A stretch of DNA of 24,434 nucleotides from a phage. The DNA is taken from the NCBI GenBank assembly GCA_021031555.1, contig GCA_021031555.1_4954.1, one strand, 5' to 3'. The position numbers and the translations under genes are program-made. Positions 5,175 to 19,404 of the stretch are shown piece by piece. The notes below the pieces were generated by a model that searched no databases, had not been told where the DNA came from, and worked only from the letters and a program-made list of their open reading frames with translations. The first letter of the stretch is position 1. Each line of letters begins with the position of its first letter.

Positions 5175-5548
5175 TGGCAGACAAACGTCAAAGCGTCCTG
5201 AACGGTGTTACTCGTGCACTTGCTGAAGTAGGTGAGGATTTGACGGTAAAACGTGTGACAACAGTTCCCAACCCTTCTAATCCTACATTACCGGGTACAA
5301 CCGTTACTGAATCACACACCTGTCGTGGTTATATTTACCCATTAGAAAAGTGGGATCCGACTACTATGACCAGAATAACCACAACGATGGTAATTATGGA
5401 TAGTCAGAGTTTTGAACCACGATTCGTTCCCGATCGGGGGGATGTTGTGGTTGATGAACGTGGTAAAGAATATCGCCTTCTTGATTGTCAAAACCCACGA
5501 TTGTTAGGGGATGATATGGCATTTATTCACCCTGTTGGAGCGGCCTGA
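5174..5548 (+). CDS. putative head-tail joining protein
   Basis: 124-aa ORF; TAATG overlap with the upstream gene; position between capsid and tail genes. Confidence 0.6.
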   Translation: MADKRQSVLNGVTRALAEVGEDLTVKRVTTVPNPSNPTLPGTTVTESHTCRGYIYPLEKWDPTTMTRITTTMVIMDSQSFEPRFVPDRGDVVVDERGKEYRLLDCQNPRLLGDDMAFIHPVGAA

Positions 5549-5549
5549 T

Positions 5550-5981
5550 ATGGCTAAGGCTAACGTTAACGATATAAACCGGATAACAGGTGTCTTTAAA
5601 GACATTAAAGCCGACCTGCGAGATTTTACCGATCGTGAAGTCATCCGGTATGTCCTGACGTTACGTAATATTCTTGTCAGTGAACCACCTGACGGTACAC
5701 CTGTGGATACAGGCTGGGCAAGCAACAACTGGTGGTTCGATCAGGGGCAACCCGCTAATAGTCCTGATACACCAACAGGTAATGTTGAAACCAGTAAAGC
5801 ACGTATCGAACAGGATACTGTCACTATCAGCAGTATTAAAGTTAATGGTCAGGAACTGCATATTACTAACAATGTTCCTTACATTGGGGTTCTCAACGGT
5901 GGTAGCAGTACACAGACACCTTCCGGGTTTGTCGAACGTGCTATATTAAAAGCCGGAATAATGGTGAGGTTTAATCAGTGA
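5550..5981 (+). CDS. putative neck / tail completion protein
   Basis: ATG 5550 lies 2 nt after the upstream stop; 143 aa. Function by position only. Confidence 0.6.
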   Translation: MAKANVNDINRITGVFKDIKADLRDFTDREVIRYVLTLRNILVSEPPDGTPVDTGWASNNWWFDQGQPANSPDTPTGNVETSKARIEQDTVTISSIKVNGQELHITNNVPYIGVLNGGSSTQTPSGFVERAILKAGIMVRFNQ

Positions 5982-6403
5982 TGACACTCTCAGATGTTTC
6001 AGGAATTGTTTATAATCGCGTTCTGGCGAATCTCCCCGTGGAAATTACGCCTGACAGATTTACAATCGCTTCTGGTCAACTCCCTGATGACACTACAGAA
6101 AAACCCGGTCTGATTCTGACACACAATCCCGGTCCGTGGACAATAACCACGCTGGGTGGGGAAGGTGTTTGTCGCCGTCGTTTAAGAACAGGAAACGTTT
6201 TTTTACAGGTACGCACACCTGCTCAGTATGGTATGGACACTTTGAGTATTGATATTGCGGATCGGCTTGCAAAATTATTTGAAGGTGTCTGGCAGGACCG
6301 CCCGTTAATTTACACGAGTGTTGATATTCGTCATCAGGGTCGTGATAACGCGTGGTTTTTAACGAACGTCGTACTTAGTTACGAATACGAAGAAATATAT
6401 TAA
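5978..6403 (+). CDS. putative tail terminator / head-tail adaptor protein
   Basis: 141-aa ORF; start (GTG 5978 or ATG 5981) overlaps the upstream stop. Function by position only. Confidence 0.55.
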   Translation: MMTLSDVSGIVYNRVLANLPVEITPDRFTIASGQLPDDTTEKPGLILTHNPGPWTITTLGGEGVCRRRLRTGNVFLQVRTPAQYGMDTLSIDIADRLAKLFEGVWQDRPLIYTSVDIRHQGRDNAWFLTNVVLSYEYEEIY

Positions 6404-6439
6404 ACTACGAATGATTGCAATCAAACGAGGCTTAGAACA

Positions 6440-7897
6440 ATGGCTGAATCAATTTTTAAATGTTCGCAAACACCTGCGGCTGATGTAAACGCAACACGAC
6501 TCAGTGTTGCAAAAGTCTGTGAACCTGTTTCTGGTACACCCTGGACGGTTCAACAACCGAATGAAATCAGTTCTTACAGTGCTGATATTACAAAGACTCA
6601 GCGTACACCGATCAGTACGGACCGATCTGCACGTAAAGGCACGGTAACTAACGTTGAAGTTGCGCCGGGTTTTCAGACAGACCTGACACTTGATACGTTC
6701 CGCTACTGGGGTGACGGATTCCTTTATAGTAAATGGGTCGGTGCTGGTGCAATTGATATTGACGTTACCAGTGTTGGCGGTGACGCTTATAACGTTACTA
6801 CTCTTGATGCGGCATTACCTGAAGGTGCTCTTGTTTATGCGACAGGTTTTACACTGGCTGCAAACAACGGTTTGAAAACTGTAGGCGCTGATAGTACCAC
6901 TACTGCTATCAAAGTGTCAGGGCTTACTGCCGAAGCGTCACCGCCTGCTGAAGCTCGTTTGTATCTCGTGGGGTATGCTGCAGCGTCTGGTGACATCGCT
7001 GTTAACAGTAATGGTCAGTTGACGTCTACCACCCTGGATTTTTCCACACTGGGTTTAGTACCTGGTCAGTATATTTATATTGACGGTCTAACACAGTCGG
7101 TTACCAGTAAAATGGCCCGTGTGACTATGGTTGGTGATCATGTTCTGACTCTCGCTAACAGTGAATTCACCACTGAAGAAGGTGCGGGTAAAACTGTACG
7201 TTTATTTGTTTCCAGTTTTGTTCGAAACGTTCCTGTTGATTCTGCAGAGTTCGTGAAAACTGAATACACGATGGAAGCACGTTACAACACGACACCTGTT
7301 ATTTATGAATACGCGCGTGCTGTAGCTGCAAACCAGATGACAATCAACGCACCATTGACTGAAAAAATGACAATGGATCTGACGTTTGTAGCACAGGATT
7401 TATCAGCACCGTCAGAAACCGCGCTATCGGGTTCCGGGTATATTGAATTCGTGGCTAACGAAGCGTACAACACCGTAACGAACCTGAACCGTGTACGACT
7501 GACCGGGATTGATGATAGTGGCCTCAGTACGTTCCTGAAAGACGTTACTGTCACCGTGAATAACAACGTGTCAGGTGAAAACGTGCTGGGCGTGATGGGT
7601 GCTGCGTTTACCAACATCGGTAACCTGGAAATCACGATGGAAACTGAAACGGTGATGACGGACGGTGCTGTACTGGCTGCGATCCGTAACAACGCAACAG
7701 TCAACTTTGAACTTGCCGGGGTAAACGGTGATGGTGCAATCGTGGTTAACATCCCTGCGATGACACTGGGTGACGGTTCCAAGAACCTTGCGACGGGCGA
7801 AAAAGTGAAAGTCACTGTTAGCGGTAACGCCCACGAAGAAGAGTCGATCGGTTTTATGATTGGGTTTAGCTTGTTCCCGTACTTGCCTACAGCATGA
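6440..7897 (+). CDS. putative major tail (tube) protein, unusually long
   Basis: 485-aa Thr/Val/Gly-rich protein; ACGAGG RBS; located where the tube gene is expected; followed by a strong terminator. Confidence 0.6.
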   Translation: MAESIFKCSQTPAADVNATRLSVAKVCEPVSGTPWTVQQPNEISSYSADITKTQRTPISTDRSARKGTVTNVEVAPGFQTDLTLDTFRYWGDGFLYSKWVGAGAIDIDVTSVGGDAYNVTTLDAALPEGALVYATGFTLAANNGLKTVGADSTTTAIKVSGLTAEASPPAEARLYLVGYAAASGDIAVNSNGQLTSTTLDFSTLGLVPGQYIYIDGLTQSVTSKMARVTMVGDHVLTLANSEFTTEEGAGKTVRLFVSSFVRNVPVDSAEFVKTEYTMEARYNTTPVIYEYARAVAANQMTINAPLTEKMTMDLTFVAQDLSAPSETALSGSGYIEFVANEAYNTVTNLNRVRLTGIDDSGLSTFLKDVTVTVNNNVSGENVLGVMGAAFTNIGNLEITMETETVMTDGAVLAAIRNNATVNFELAGVNGDGAIVVNIPAMTLGDGSKNLATGEKVKVTVSGNAHEEESIGFMIGFSLFPYLPTA

Positions 7898-13730: not shown

Positions 13731-14086
13731 TCGGTGATCGCTACGATATTGATAAATGGAATTGTACACACGAGGTCAGTCAGTGGTATCAGGTGCACAA
13801 TTACCCACACGTATTGAAAACTGTTTCAGGTGATGAATGGGATATTGCGTTTGTCAGATGGATGCGAAAACGTTTTTTACCAATCACCGCACCGGAACAA
13901 GGTGCACTCGTACTGATGAAGAACAGATATTCAGGCGGTTTTCATGTCGGCGTGTGGGATTGTGGAATGGTTCATCATTGTTATCAACCACCGGGTGATT
14001 CACCGGGACAGACAATCAGATCACCTTTAAGTATAATCAAGACAGCACATAAAGAAATCACGTTCTGGAGAATGAAAAGTGTCTAA
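13727..14086 (+). CDS. tail assembly protein with NlpC/P60-like Cys-His motif (K-like)
   Basis: 119 aa; WNCTHEV (candidate catalytic Cys) and GGFHVGVW...HH; ATGA overlap with the upstream gene. Confidence 0.6.
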   Translation: MIGDRYDIDKWNCTHEVSQWYQVHNYPHVLKTVSGDEWDIAFVRWMRKRFLPITAPEQGALVLMKNRYSGGFHVGVWDCGMVHHCYQPPGDSPGQTIRSPLSIIKTAHKEITFWRMKSV

Positions 14087-16622
14087 AGTCATCTATCACA
14101 CTAATCCTGTTGAACACGCGGATAACGTTGACTTTGGTGAATGGATGCTGAAACGCTGGCCCGTGGGTACAGTTCGTCCACGTGGGTTACTGATTTATAA
14201 AAACGATGAGAACATCACCCAAAAGTGGGTTACTGATCCCAGCGTATTGACTGATCCTGACGCTGTTTATCACATTTATGAATTACCAAAAGGTGGGGTG
14301 ATTAGTGCAATAACGAAAGTTATTAGCACAATTCTAAACCCCATTTTAAAATTGTTCATGCCGAATACCAGTGCGTCGGCTAAGCTTAAGAACTCACGTT
14401 CAGCGTCGTCTAACAACGCGCTTCAGGGGCGTACCAACGCTTCACGACCCGGTGAACGTATTTCTGATATCCGTGGTCGTGTACTGGCATATCCTGACCT
14501 GTTAATGGACTACCGAATCTTTATTGACCGAAAAGAATATGAAGTTCAGTTCCTGTGTCTGGGCGCTGGTGAATATGAAGTCGAAGACGTTCGTGATGGT
14601 ATTACACCTGCTGTAAATATCAGTGGTGAAAAATTAGACTTTTATAAAAAAGGGAATGCACCTGGGTATGGTTCTCCGTACATGAATATTGGTGGTGCAA
14701 TTGATATTAACACTTTCCCGATCATGGTTGCTAAGTCATCGAATGAAGCAGACGGATCTGAAGTTAAACCGCCAAACTATGCTGATATCAGTAAAGCGAG
14801 TTTTAAAATTTACAGCACTGGTGAAATTGACACTACGATTTCCAGCGACAACAACACTACGATTGACTGGTCGGAACGTGCACCAATCGGTAGTAAAATT
14901 CGTTTATCGCAATTTTATAGCTTTACACCTAACACGTTACCGTTAAACACGTATGTACGTAATGATCTGTCTGGTGAATATGACATTATTTATGCAGGTG
15001 AGAATACGTTAATCATTGATACTACTGGTCGTGAAGGTTGGGATGCTCTGTCTGAAAGTGGTCAGGCTGCATATACACAGGCTTATTTGCGAAACGATGG
15101 TTACTGGGAACTTGAAACCACTGAAGGAAGCGGAAGTATTTTATACAAGTTTTCACCGTCTCTTGACAGTACCACGCCGTATATTGTCGGGCCTTATCTG
15201 ATTGATAGTGCGGATAAGTTGATGATTAATCTTTATGCACAGAATGGCGTGTATAAAACTGATGGCGACATTTATCCGTTTACCTGTGATTTTCAGGTAG
15301 TATTGTCAGACCCGAACGGTGTGAAAGCAAATGTTACACACTCTATGTCTGTCCGCGGTCGTTATACAGAAGCCGTAGGTAATTCGTTAATTGTGGACAA
15401 CCCTTTTGACGGCCCTGTCAACGTGTCTGTAAGACGACTGTCAAATACAGACAAAGACTTCGAAGGGTCTGTTGTTGACAACATCAAGTGGCGCGATTTG
15501 TACGCTATCACGAACGTTTCCCCGCGTTCCTATGGTGATGTGACATTGATCCATACAGTGACGAAAGCAACAAATGCGGCACTGAAACAAAAAGAACGTA
15601 AATTAAACATGATTGCAACCCGTGTGTATAACGGTGATGCAAGTAGTAATTTTGCAGACGTTGTAATGTCAATGCACACAGATCCTTTATTTGGTCGTCG
15701 CACATTGGACACCATTGATCGTGATGCTATATATGCTGTTCAGGCACAACTTCTTGAATATTTTGGTGACCAACGAGCAATTGAAGTTGGCTATACATTT
15801 GATAACAACAGTACGACGTACGAAGAAGGATTGGACACTATCTGTAACACGGTGAATGTTAAACCGTATCAGATCGGTAGTGTATTGTATTTCTGGCCTG
15901 AATTACCGCAGGACCAGTCTGCAATGCAGTTCGGTCATGCATTTAAAATTCCTGACAGTGATAAACGTACGCGCTCTTTTGCGCCACCTAAAGAATATAC
16001 TGGTGTTCAGGTTAAATACTTCGATCACGATGAAAAATCATATTTGTATGTAACCAAAGGTGAAGAAACAAACCTTAATAAGATAGATCTTGTTGCGTGT
16101 CAGTCGCGATATCTTGCAAACATTCGCGCTAATCGTGAGATGAATAAGTTACGTTATCAACGTATCACCCATGAGTGTACAGCGCTTAGTATCGGGTTAC
16201 AGGCTACCCCAGGTATGCGTGTGGATATGATTGATAATACCCGTATGAAACAGCATGAAGGCGTTGTAGTCGATGTTGACGGTTTAATACTTATTCTCAG
16301 CGATCCTGTTACGTTCACCACGGGTAATACATACAGCATAACGTTAACACACCGACTGGGAACACTTGAAAATATTCCTGTAACTGCCGGGGATAATGAA
16401 TTTTCAGTGGTAATGGCTTATCAACCGTCTGACGAAATTTATACAGGATGGTTGCGTGACCGTACAGCATATGTGATTCGTGCTGATGATGAGCGTAGCA
16501 AATTAGCAATGCTTGTTCAGAGGATGGAACCGTCAGGAAGAGATAATAACTATCAGGTAGGTTTAACGTGCATCAATTACGATGCACGTTATTACAAGGA
16601 TGATTTAAAACAAGTTATCTAA
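14079..16622 (+). CDS. tail tip / central fibre protein (J-like host specificity protein)
   Basis: 847 aa; GTG start with GGAGA 7 nt upstream; last large gene of the tail operon. Confidence 0.65.
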   Translation: MSKVIYHTNPVEHADNVDFGEWMLKRWPVGTVRPRGLLIYKNDENITQKWVTDPSVLTDPDAVYHIYELPKGGVISAITKVISTILNPILKLFMPNTSASAKLKNSRSASSNNALQGRTNASRPGERISDIRGRVLAYPDLLMDYRIFIDRKEYEVQFLCLGAGEYEVEDVRDGITPAVNISGEKLDFYKKGNAPGYGSPYMNIGGAIDINTFPIMVAKSSNEADGSEVKPPNYADISKASFKIYSTGEIDTTISSDNNTTIDWSERAPIGSKIRLSQFYSFTPNTLPLNTYVRNDLSGEYDIIYAGENTLIIDTTGREGWDALSESGQAAYTQAYLRNDGYWELETTEGSGSILYKFSPSLDSTTPYIVGPYLIDSADKLMINLYAQNGVYKTDGDIYPFTCDFQVVLSDPNGVKANVTHSMSVRGRYTEAVGNSLIVDNPFDGPVNVSVRRLSNTDKDFEGSVVDNIKWRDLYAITNVSPRSYGDVTLIHTVTKATNAALKQKERKLNMIATRVYNGDASSNFADVVMSMHTDPLFGRRTLDTIDRDAIYAVQAQLLEYFGDQRAIEVGYTFDNNSTTYEEGLDTICNTVNVKPYQIGSVLYFWPELPQDQSAMQFGHAFKIPDSDKRTRSFAPPKEYTGVQVKYFDHDEKSYLYVTKGEETNLNKIDLVACQSRYLANIRANREMNKLRYQRITHECTALSIGLQATPGMRVDMIDNTRMKQHEGVVVDVDGLILILSDPVTFTTGNTYSITLTHRLGTLENIPVTAGDNEFSVVMAYQPSDEIYTGWLRDRTAYVIRADDERSKLAMLVQRMEPSGRDNNYQVGLTCINYDARYYKDDLKQVI

Positions 16623-17027
16623 GCAGTTGGCTTGTTTTTTGTTGCAACATCTGAGCAGTGGAAAGATAAGCAGACAGGAGAAAAGAAAGAGCAGACTGAA
16701 TGGCATCGCGTGGTCATCTTCGGTAAACTTGCTGAAGTTGCAGGAGAATACCTTCGCAAAGGTTCGCAGGTTTATATCGAAGGCCAGCTACGCACTCGTA
16801 AATGGTCTGACAGCAACGGCGTAGACCGATATACCACGGAAATTGTCATTCCACAGATGGGCGGCGTAATGCAGATGCTTGGAAGTAAACGCGAAGATTC
16901 TGGTCAGCAACAACGCCAGCAATCAGGCCAACAACAGCAACGACAGCAACAGCAGCAACAAAAACTACAAAGCCCACAAGGAGGTAATGAGCCAAAGATG
17001 GATTTCGATGACGACATTCCCTTCTGA
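16623..17027 (+). pseudogene. ssb: 5'-truncated ssb (single-stranded DNA-binding protein) remnant
   Basis: The translation closely matches the E. coli SSB sequence as recalled from residue ~55 onward ([35 protein letters not shown]...DRYTTE) and ends in the canonical acidic tip MDFDDDIPF. The N-terminal part of the OB fold is absent. Homology begins 3 codons after the stop of the upstream gene, in the same frame. No RBS. Confidence 0.8.
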
Positions 17028-17031
17028 TGAT

Positions 17032-17059
17032 AAAACCCCGCCGAAGCGGGGTTTTATTT
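17032..17059. terminator. bidirectional intrinsic terminator
   Basis: AAAACCCCGC cgaa GCGGGGTTTT: GC-rich stem flanked by an A-tract and a T-tract, between the convergent ssb remnant and tailspike. Confidence 0.75.
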
Positions 17060-19054
17060 CTAAATAGCTTGCGCGGTAAGGATGATGCCAGATGAGTAAA
17101 GGGTCAGTCCCGTTATTTCACTAGCCAACAGCGCTTTGAACATGTTGCGGTCCTGCCCGAAAACAACGCCAGAGAAGAAAGTCCCAAGATTTCTGTATCC
17201 GCCAGCGGTTGGCATACGGATAAATAGGTAAGACGTACCCTCATACGTGCCGGTAAACCAAGCATCATAATCTGTGAGAGATTGGCTATCGCAGTGAGCA
17301 GCTCTGACTAATTTTGCTCGTGTATCAGTATCACTACCTACGGTATTGAAGTCATATACGCCAGCTATAGGGTTCATGCTTGGCCCACTCCGCAGAGTGA
17401 AAATCGTCCCAAGACAGCCACGCATTCCGTATTGCCCACCAACTATGCGGTAGTAAGGCCCAGCAGACTGGTCCGGGTTGGGTAACACCATATCGCGGCA
17501 CATAGTGGTGCTGAATGTCGGTATTGTCGCCGTTCCACCCATATTACCTAGCGTGGCGAAAGTCGCGGTTGCGGTGTCGTACGAGTTACGTTGAGGCCAC
17601 GACGTTTCAACCTTATTGCTGTACACGATTTCTAACTTAGCACCGTTAGTTAAACGGGCCATCGCTCCATTGAAAGTAGTGGTCGAATTGGTGATTAGTT
17701 GCTTAATGCTTACTTTCGCATAACCGGATAGGTCAAACATGTAGCTACCAGCAGCCTGCGTTTGGTCGTACAGGTGTATATTATCTATCTGTAAGTTAGC
17801 CCCGGTGCCTTTAATAATTGTGCCGTTGTTCTGGCGAGAAGGTTGCTCACAACCTAAAGATGAAACGCTGTACGAGCCTGCGTTAAAAATATACGGAGTC
17901 CCAGCGCAATCATCAGATGCTAACGGACCCACTTCGCAGTATGAGCCTGTCAACTCAAAGGAGCAGTAATTCGATTTATATACATTACATTGAGATAATA
18001 CGTAGCTCGTCCCACCATGTATATGAATACCACCGTATATACCCGTAGCGTCTGAACCTTGGACAACTATTTCGCGGATGGAAACACCAACGAATGTATT
18101 TCCGCCAAAATACATTCCCCATTTTTGCGCAAGGATAAATAGATCACTAAATTCCTGGTATACGGCGGTATTGGGAGTGTAGTACCCGTAGCTATCAGTT
18201 GTCTCGTCAAGGATGCGCAGTCCGCGGATAACATTACCGCGTTTACCTTTGTTATAGAAAACCGCGTTAACATCCTGAGTTCCTACTGCTGTTTTGCGAA
18301 TAATGGATGCACGTCCCTCGCCGACGAATCGGCTTCCCGGTGGCTGATAGTATTTCTCGTTGTAAACATCTTCCAAATCATAGAGAAGAATGGAGTCCGA
18401 TACCTCATATTCGCCAGCGGGCACAAATATAGTTTTTCCCAGTTGCGCGGATATAGTTGACGCGCGATTAAACGCAAGTGTCCAGTCAGGGTCGATGCTC
18501 TGGCGGAAATCAAGAACGGATATCATTTCCGCGTTTTTGTCATGCTGAGTGCGGCTTACCGTGTTGGCATATGGTTGTTTGACTCCAATGAGAGAATCAC
18601 CTTTCCCGCCATCCGTTGAAGCAAGACTGCTGGTTAACTGGTTTACTGCTGCCATTGCAGTGGCGTCACCAACACTAAGCCATGCACCTAAACCAATACC
18701 ACCAGAATTTTCAGGAGTTGAACCTGACGGGATAGTTTTAGGAAACTCGCCGTCCCAGCGATAATACTCACCAGTAGCTTCATGTCGCAAAACCTGATTT
18801 GGCAACGTCAGTGTCGCACCACCCTCAAAGCTATCCATTGTGATGTAACCGACCTGAGATATAGCCTGATTGTACAGGTTTTCTAAACCATCAAGTGTCT
18901 TGTTAGTAACTGATTGACCACGAATCGTATCGGTAACATCCAACGCGTGATTACCGTTTGCATCACGACTTTTTGCAACGTGTTCAATATGTAAAATCGC
19001 TTGTTTGCCTGTTTTCAAATCATCAGCACTGATATAATCGTTACAGTTAGCCAT
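17060..19054 (-). CDS. tailspike / receptor-binding depolymerase (right-handed beta-helix type)
   Basis: 664 aa from ATG 19054 (GGAGA 8 nt upstream). Central region has repetitive Gly/Asn/Thr-rich beta-strand character typical of pectate-lyase-like tailspikes, behind a ~130-aa N-terminal domain. Opposite strand to the tail operon. Confidence 0.75.
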   Translation of the reverse strand: MANCNDYISADDLKTGKQAILHIEHVAKSRDANGNHALDVTDTIRGQSVTNKTLDGLENLYNQAISQVGYITMDSFEGGATLTLPNQVLRHEATGEYYRWDGEFPKTIPSGSTPENSGGIGLGAWLSVGDATAMAAVNQLTSSLASTDGGKGDSLIGVKQPYANTVSRTQHDKNAEMISVLDFRQSIDPDWTLAFNRASTISAQLGKTIFVPAGEYEVSDSILLYDLEDVYNEKYYQPPGSRFVGEGRASIIRKTAVGTQDVNAVFYNKGKRGNVIRGLRILDETTDSYGYYTPNTAVYQEFSDLFILAQKWGMYFGGNTFVGVSIREIVVQGSDATGIYGGIHIHGGTSYVLSQCNVYKSNYCSFELTGSYCEVGPLASDDCAGTPYIFNAGSYSVSSLGCEQPSRQNNGTIIKGTGANLQIDNIHLYDQTQAAGSYMFDLSGYAKVSIKQLITNSTTTFNGAMARLTNGAKLEIVYSNKVETSWPQRNSYDTATATFATLGNMGGTATIPTFSTTMCRDMVLPNPDQSAGPYYRIVGGQYGMRGCLGTIFTLRSGPSMNPIAGVYDFNTVGSDTDTRAKLVRAAHCDSQSLTDYDAWFTGTYEGTSYLFIRMPTAGGYRNLGTFFSGVVFGQDRNMFKALLASEITGLTLYSSGIILTAQAI

Positions 19055-19080
19055 CTTTAAGTCTCCAGGAGTGTAGAACA

Positions 19081-19404
19081 ATGTCTGATAACCCAGTGTT
19101 AAGGTATTGGCCTATAATAGCATTTGTTGCCACGGGGTTGGTAGGTTACGGGGTAACTCAAAACCAAATCAATTCTAATGAAAAAGATATTGCAGATGCA
19201 AAAACCTATGCGCATGAAGCGATTAATCTGGCAAAACGTGTTGAATCCCGTGTGGATGTTCACGACATCAAAATTGAATATCAGGCAACACAGAATGCTG
19301 AAATTCTCACCAGTGTTAAAGAGCTAACACAGTCAACAAATGACCTGAAAGTTGTTATTGAAGGTTTGAAAGCGGAACAACGTAAAACCGGGAGTAAACA
19401 ATGA
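19081..19404 (+). CDS. lysis-associated membrane protein (putative holin or antiholin)
   Basis: 107 aa; one N-terminal transmembrane segment (PIIAFVATGLVGYGV) followed by a coiled-coil region; AGGAG RBS; ATGA overlap with the endolysin start. Confidence 0.55.
   Translation: MSDNPVLRYWPIIAFVATGLVGYGVTQNQINSNEKDIADAKTYAHEAINLAKRVESRVDVHDIKIEYQATQNAEILTSVKELTQSTNDLKVVIEGLKAEQRKTGSKQ

Follow-up and report, generated by a model that had tools for sequence, protein, structure and literature searches.

The window (the whole 24,434-nucleotide stretch of phage DNA analysed here) belongs to a 9NA-like siphovirus (Nonanavirus/Sashavirus), as judged by the DNA identity of its flanks. These flanks, including the tail-tip gene, were 88–95% identical to their counterparts in KarinMuster_Bas82 (hereafter Bas82), BDX09P1 and 536P12 (both Sashavirus, from the OZ0357 genome assemblies), AVIO78A, PJ16 and Sasha. 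The tail-tip gene and the N-terminal part of the tailspike gene, which flank the fragment under study, found matches in Bas82, BDX09P1, 536P12, AVIO78A, Sasha and 9NA. Between them lie most of an ssb gene, lacking its beginning, and a terminator, and the locus reads as follows:

14079–16622, + strand: tail-tip (J-like) gene of 847 codons, 9NA-like backbone (ORF list, FNIII-A_GpJ, DNA identity).
16608–16640, + strand: left junction, about 33 nt of uncertain origin delimited by alignments, with TTG 16632 inside it.
16641–17027, + strand: ssb remnant proper, corresponding to donor SSB residues 34–161 plus the first stop codon (Pfam, PDB, DNA identity, tblastn).
17032–17059, acting on both strands: predicted bidirectional intrinsic terminator, with a hairpin at 17032–17055, a T-tract to 17059 and an A-tract for the opposite strand.
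17060–18662, − strand: receptor-binding part of the tailspike, an exchangeable cassette with no megablast match in the phage collection.
18663–18850, − strand: Tail_spike_N segment, a conserved tailspike N-terminal domain and candidate second homology arm.
18851–19054, − strand: lineage-specific N-terminal anchor of the tailspike (blastp; Bas82 annotation).

The tail-tip ORF gave a weak match to FNIII-A_GpJ in the domain search. On the other side of the fragment, the convergent tailspike gene (17060–19081, − strand) stops directly past the terminator hairpin. The mechanically called tailspike ORF begins at TTG 19081, abutting the start of a divergent holin ORF (19081–19404); the true start is probably ATG 19054, as annotated in Bas82 (MANCNDY…). 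The first ~57 amino acids of the tailspike matched only 9NA-like phages by blastp, and the Tail_spike_N domain (PF18668) was found at amino acids 73–139 with E = 3.9e-21. The best protein match to the receptor-binding part was a hypothetical protein of Salmonella phage SKML-39, with 37% identity over the full length.

The sequence from 16623 to 17027 codes for a bacterial-type SSB of which only the C-terminal ~80% is left. Its translation matched the Pfam SSB profile PF00436 (E = 1e-26, 93.4 bits), with protein residues 2–79 aligned to profile positions 25–101 of 104, and two PDB chains, 7f2n (residues 29–174, E = 5.4e-45) and E. coli 1eqq (residues 31–178, E = 1.1e-42). When the 161-residue SSB of phage ASO78B was used as a tblastn query, residues 28–153 aligned to 16623–17000 with 84% identity (E = 1e-59), and residues 1–27 had no match anywhere in the 24.4-kb window. 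The SSB homology on which the original prediction was built is thus significant in formal searches, but it begins at SSB residue ~28–34 and not at ~55 as had been proposed. At the DNA level, high identity to full-length ssb genes begins at 16641, donor codon 34, and 16623–16640 is a degenerate trace of codons 28–33, in which 10 of 18 nt are identical to the donors; alignment to full-length genes therefore puts the truncation at codon ~28–34.

The remnant retains most of the OB-fold minus its N-terminal strand(s), followed by the Gln-rich linker and the acidic partner-binding tip DFDDDIPF, both of which were correctly read from the translation. The tip lies directly 5′ of the stop at 17025–17027, and the stops TGA TGA TAA follow one another at 17025–17033. 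The fragment consequently shows two features of SSB family members, sequence similarity and the acidic tip, and lacks a third, a complete OB-fold. We searched the window for an upstream in-frame start or an N-terminal ssb exon that would restore the full fold and found none; tblastn with the N-terminal 40 amino acids of donor proteins yielded noise except at 16623–16661. Since the missing N-terminal residues include strand β1, a correctly folded DNA-binding domain would be unlikely even if the fragment were translated, and loss of this strand is expected to block the folding needed for ssDNA binding and tetramer formation. An ORF of 131 codons, from TTG 16632 to TGA 17025–17027, is nevertheless intact in the window, whose copy has three private amino-acid changes (G115S, Q141L and P151K in donor numbering). 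The only other ssDNA-binding protein annotated in Bas82 is Gp2.5-like and encoded beside the DNA polymerase, and no second bacterial-type ssb is annotated in that record; the ssb fragment therefore appears foreign to the replication module of this backbone.

We found the closest full-length counterparts of the remnant in Skatevirus/Macdonaldcampvirus-like siphoviruses (PHA46_2, SeLz-2, ASO78B, ZCEC08, HC8A, Seszw, D10, Vi II-E1 and Bas77–81), which we refer to as donors. Across ten full-length donor ssb genes, DNA identity was 85–92% for the window copy and reached 93% for sister copies. Every annotated donor has the gene order recE – erf/recombinase – ssb → terminator ← tailspike ← J-like tail gene, confirmed in nine genomes (ASO78B, PHA46_2, ZCEC08, Seszw_1, HC8A, D10, Vi II-E1, Bas81 and Bas78). 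In donors, ssb thus lies directly next to the tailspike 3′ end and converges on it, a position that would allow the two to be transferred together. Because the donor ssb converges on the tailspike across the same terminator, the fragment most likely hitch-hiked with a tailspike cassette.

The bidirectional terminator predicted to follow the remnant was supported by folding. The hairpin AAAACCCCGC-CGAA-GCGGGGTTTT at 17032–17055 has a folding energy of −20.1 kcal/mol (z = −5.6), and is followed by TTTTATTT on the + strand and by TTTTATC on the − strand; it is flanked by an A-run and, on the opposite side, a T-run. The hairpin (17031–17054) is 100% identical to that of several donors and appears as a pair of opposed terminators in the ASO78B annotation; it was probably imported together with the ssb fragment. 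A simple consensus scan for terminators did not list the 17032–17055 hairpin, and an Rfam search of 16300–17400 returned only sub-threshold matches, which were caused by it.

On the left, homology to the backbone stops at GATGATT (16607), and the following ~33 nt match neither the backbone nor, convincingly, donor ssb. This stretch (16608–16640) may have been added as filler when the ends were joined illegitimately, or may be an old edge spared by later exchanges. The same left junction, with the shared pattern …GATGATTTA[T/A]AACAAGTTATCT.A.C...TGGCTTG…, was found in seven independent genomes or contigs: the window, Bas82, BDX09P1, 536P12, two IMG/VR contigs and the metagenome contig QZLM01004012.1. 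This identity points to one founding event for all seven copies, and separate acquisition in each phage is ruled out by it. Another metagenomic match to the junction pattern, in Ga0113563, was set aside as due to chance.

In the fragment-free phages AVIO78A, Sasha and 9NA, GATGATTAA is followed by unrelated sequence, and the tail-tip stop leads to the tailspike 3′ end directly or through a short spacer; matches to PJ16, Sergei and Solent also end at the end of the tail-tip gene. The remnant is thus dispensable, given its absence from the close relatives AVIO78A, Sasha and 9NA. We checked related phages for a full-length ssb at this site, as had been suggested, and none carried one. As in a mosaic-junction remnant, the gene is broken at a module boundary, between the tail-tip stop and ssb codon ~28–34. 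The earlier reading of the fragment as a scar left by recombination at the edge of the receptor-binding module is supported and gains detail, with a donor type that can now be named and a junction identical in seven copies.

The fragment had further been described as being in frame with the tail-tip gene, three codons after its stop. This holds for the window, in which the fragment shares the frame of the 847-amino-acid tail-tip ORF and TTG 16632 lies three codons past TAA 16620–16622, but the placement is due to a point change private to the window. At 16608–16610 the window has AAA where each of the six related copies has the TAA that ends the tail-tip gene, and the window protein gains four private last codons, KQVI (16608–16619), before ending at TAA 16620; in every related copy the ORF ends four codons earlier. 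Two in-frame stops lie between the tail gene and the fragment in five of the seven copies, and a single TAA in the window and Bas82.

The distribution of the fragment among backbones is more complex than its single junction. In the 2.9 kb upstream of the junction, the tail-tip gene of 536P12 is ~32% divergent from those of other Sasha-like phages over its first 2.2 kb and 8–10% divergent over its last 700 nt, which adjoin the junction; this implies a recombination boundary within the gene. In the tail-tip tree, phages with and without the fragment are interleaved. Together these patterns suggest that the relic block has passed from one backbone to another, was lost more than once, or both.

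We then considered whether the fragment could be expressed and found few signals for it. Its only start covering the fragment is TTG 16632, which has no Shine-Dalgarno sequence, in agreement with the original prediction; the anti-Shine-Dalgarno duplex was +0.3 kcal/mol, compared with −6.4 to −7.6 kcal/mol for the tail-tip and holin starts. Near the fragment, the promoter search returned one weak site, inside the tail gene and below shuffle expectation. Further downstream, in the 16978–17027 region, the Shine-Dalgarno-like AAGGAGGT (duplex −11.4 kcal/mol) precedes the in-frame ATG 16998 by 13 nt, and translation from that ATG would give MDFDDDIPF. A 13-nt spacing is at the outer limit of functional spacing, and AAGGAGGT codes for Gln-Gly-Gly and is present in all functional donors. 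Since the functional donor genes have the same arrangement, it is probably incidental here.

Three of the seven copies are disrupted by a stop or by frameshifts. The BDX09P1 copy has an in-frame TAG before the acidic tip, which itself reads DDLIPF. That of 536P12 has two 1-nt deletions, one of them inside the OB-fold, and deletions in the linker and the tip, that in the tip being of 3 nt. In QZLM01004012.1, deletions of −1 and −2 scramble 13 codons, including that of the tryptophan in VATSEQW, the first DNA-binding Trp. The ORF remains open in the other four (the window, Bas82 and the two IMG/VR contigs), with tips reading DFDDDIPF or DFSDDIPF. Among changes unique to one sequence in the OB-fold, the ratio of non-synonymous to synonymous was 11:7 in remnants versus 6:19 in donors (Fisher p = 0.026), and pairwise non-synonymous/synonymous codon differences in the OB-fold were 0.31 and 0.13, respectively; when the fast-evolving linker was included and the whole remnant compared, the excess was not significant (17:10 versus 23:30, p = 0.16). 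These comparisons suggest that constraint on the OB-fold is relaxed and that the fragment is decaying. Taken by itself, the window copy would be indistinguishable from a recently acquired, still translatable fragment, because its 131-codon ORF is intact, its tip is canonical and its private changes number only three.

The same truncated fragment has been deposited in the Bas82 record (5633–6025) as a CDS with a TTG start, Bas82_0054, ‘single strand DNA binding protein’; this is probably an over-annotated pseudogene. The available portions of the BASEL completion paper, the APEC phage paper and the 2026 UPEC phage paper, all of which mention these phages, do not discuss the ssb fragment.

Sequence exchange appears to have continued within the relic. 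Over 16641–16840 the window and BDX09P1 differ at 3 positions and both are PHA46_2-like, and beyond ~16845–16883 BDX09P1 becomes ASO78B-like (max-chi-square p = 0.0005–0.004). Bas82 resembles the window and PHA46_2 to the left of ~16838 and Bas81 to the right (max-chi-square p = 0.0005), and its Bas81-like stretch runs through a different terminator and intergenic region to the tailspike stop. The 536P12 copy is ZCEC08-like over 16741–16840. The max-chi-square triplets were picked after inspection of the alignment, which makes these p-values optimistic. A PHI-like test was modestly positive for the remnants (p = 0.027) and not significant for all 17 sequences (p = 0.29). The remnant copies thus appear to combine, as mosaics, stretches from different ssb alleles of the donors, joined near 16838–16883.

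At least four mutually unrelated kinds of receptor-binding domain adjoin the relic on otherwise close backbones: that of BDX09P1 matched large, myovirus-sized phages (95%), that of 536P12 matched Phapecoctavirus/Justusliebigvirus (87%), and that of Bas82 matched the 39.7-kb phage Bas105 (96%). The segment common to both phage groups is Tail_spike_N, which by blastn was 74–82% identical over ~190 nt to all 9 matching donor loci (Vi II-E1 gave no match) and up to 88% identical over 284 nt between Bas82 and Bas81. By blastp this segment of the window tailspike was 59–72% identical to seven Skatevirus-like tailspikes, and longer alignments gave 42–43% for HC8A and ZCEC08 and 37% for Vi II-E1. In the phage collection, megablast found no close relative of the window's receptor-binding domain contiguous with a donor ssb, and none of the receptor-binding domains beside the relic was found to be contiguous with a known Skatevirus-like donor across the terminator.

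Another pair of phages nonetheless documents a transfer of a receptor-binding domain from one group to the other. AVIO78A, which is 9NA-like and carries no fragment, shares 1601 nt of tailspike with ASO78B at 93% identity. From the sequences, this is a recent inter-group swap and direct proof that such domains pass between the groups. The shared receptor-binding stretch lies at 5659–7258 in AVIO78A and 5475–7074 in ASO78B, both of which were isolated on the same E. coli O78 strain. The available text of the paper describing both phages does not point out the swap.

Our combined findings make it very probable that 16608–17059 is a non-functional relic, consisting of the 3′ ~80% of a bacterial-type ssb and a bidirectional terminator, that was imported as flanking DNA together with a Skatevirus/Macdonaldcampvirus-like tailspike cassette. 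This reading draws on direct observations, namely the homology, the donor gene order, the single shared junction, the lack of a ribosome-binding site at the full-length start and the disabling lesions in relatives. A block running from ssb codon ~28/34 to its stop, through the terminator and into the 3′ part of the tailspike gene, would have entered a 9NA-like genome whose tailspike gene was already convergent on the tail-tip gene. The left crossover would have been an illegitimate join of the tail-tip stop codon to about codon 28–34 of ssb, and the right crossover presumably fell in the Tail_spike_N segment common to both phage groups. Since then its only transcription would have been as the untranslated 3′ end of the late tail operon mRNA, which stops at the terminator, and we infer that the relic yields no functional protein.

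Whether the relic, with ~420 nt at 85–93% identity to donors, has since served as a downstream homology arm for exchanges with the donor group is in our view an even call. If it has, both the mosaic ssb alleles and the unrelated receptor-binding domains beside the copies are explained. Because no donor contiguity was found across the terminator, its use for tailspike swaps, as opposed to exchange of ssb and terminator only, is a matter of inference. In a further extension, which we regard as rather doubtful, the relic, the terminator and Tail_spike_N would together form a two-armed exchange site for repeated capture of receptor-binding domains from or via Skatevirus-like phages, and the relic would then persist as its carriers switch hosts more readily. 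A related possibility, of the same low order of likelihood, is that selection keeps the relic as a recombination ‘landing pad’, with carriers capturing Skatevirus-like tailspike cassettes more often than other phages. The mosaic 3′ halves, which point to repeated exchange inside the relic, and the variety of adjoining receptor-binding domains would fit this, as would the fact that the relic offers a longer arm, and one of higher identity, than any sequence 3′ of the tailspike in relic-free phages; the 536P12 junction, on a strongly divergent tail-tip backbone, indicates that the block spreads. Yet the swap between AVIO78A and ASO78B took place without a relic, relic-free phages also have diverse tailspikes, and no receptor-binding domain adjoining the relic is contiguous with that of a Skatevirus-like donor. 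Moreover, with only seven copies, such second-order selection is hard to tell from neutral persistence.

The remaining explanations fare worse. The original prediction had speculatively left room for a decoy, in which a fragment translated by re-initiation at TTG 16632 or from an internal start would compete through its C-terminal tip with host SSB for partners. We consider this improbable. The ORF is open and the tip intact in four copies, TTG 16632 follows the stop of a translated gene by 9 nt, the public Bas82 record lists Bas82_0054 as a protein, and translation from ATG 16998 behind AAGGAGGT could, as a speculative addition, yield a nine-residue SSB-tip peptide, MDFDDDIPF. Against this stand the lack of a Shine-Dalgarno sequence at TTG 16632, the wide spacing and ordinary coding role of AAGGAGGT, and the fact that AVIO78A, Sasha and 9NA manage without the fragment; the lesions in BDX09P1, 536P12 and QZLM01 and the non-synonymous enrichment in the OB-fold also speak against it. 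It is more improbable still that programmed readthrough of the stop codon makes the fragment a C-terminal extension of the tail-tip protein (a J-SSB fusion): the common frame and single TAA in the window and Bas82 would permit it, but five of the seven copies have two intervening stops and the continuity of frame in the window depends on its private TAA→AAA change. Finally, a chimeric contig assembled from 9NA-like and Skatevirus-like reads of a mixed sample would require both phage types to occur together, which they do (for example AVIO78A and ASO78B on E. coli O78, Bas77–82 on O16). We give such an artefact next to no weight, given that the identical junction recurs in seven independently produced sequences, including Bas82 from Switzerland, and that the fragment is bordered by backbone sequence to its left and to its right.

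As a flanking relic of a tailspike transfer, the feature is an ordinary pseudogene scar of a well-known kind that calls for no new biology, and it is more informative than most gene remnants in that its sequence reveals the donor, the neighbour transferred with it and later recombination. It corrects the over-annotation as ‘single strand DNA binding protein’ in Bas82, and it marks, with a date and a direction, the passage of tailspikes between two unrelated siphovirus groups on the same O-antigen-bearing hosts. It also offers a testable example of flanking ‘junk’ from a receptor-binding cassette that is later able to act as a homology arm, which is relevant to predicting or engineering host-range shifts in therapeutic phages.

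Compared with the SSBs of E. coli and Klebsiella (1eqq, 1eyg and 7f2n), the window copy aligns to residues ~29–178, including the terminal DFDDDIPF, and lacks the first ~28–30 residues, which in E. coli SSB structures include strand β1 of the OB-barrel. The sequence counterparts of the ssDNA-stacking aromatics of E. coli SSB are kept (Trp in SEQW, TEWH and RKW; Phe in IFG), and the linker is Gln-rich rather than Gly/Pro-rich. The closest full-length counterparts are the Skatevirus/Macdonaldcampvirus-like genes (Vi II-E1 VIP0041, ASO78B_063, the PHA46_2 gene, Seszw_37 and Bas81_0077). With these the window copy has in common 85–92% DNA identity from codon 34 to the stop, the Gln-rich linker, the acidic tip and the convergent tailspike neighbour, and with most of them the terminator hairpin. 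The donor genes, however, have 161–167 codons and an ATG start and stand at the end of a recE-erf-ssb module, whereas the window copy is without codons 1–27, has degenerate codons 28–33, has no ribosome-binding site and follows a tail gene.

The tailspike itself conforms to the pattern of domain swapping behind a conserved anchor, with the anchor at amino acids 1–57, Tail_spike_N at 58–148 and a variable receptor-binding domain thereafter. The tailspike stands at the receptor-binding protein locus beside the J-like tail-tip gene (PMC11990801). In the window the tailspike converges on the J-like gene, whereas in the donors it lies downstream of it. The window also differs from the swapping pattern in that the 3′ side of the cassette is flanked by donor-group DNA, the ssb relic and terminator, and no such DNA lies 3′ of the tailspike in phages without the relic. 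Gene remnants at the mosaic joints of tailed phages are part of the picture of modular evolution that came from lambdoid phages. The ssb relic resembles them in being a truncated gene at a module boundary, produced by illegitimate recombination, devoid of expression signals and decaying in sister lineages. It differs in that names can be given to its donor lineage, to the tailspike that came with it and to the terminator, and in its later homologous exchange with the donor group.
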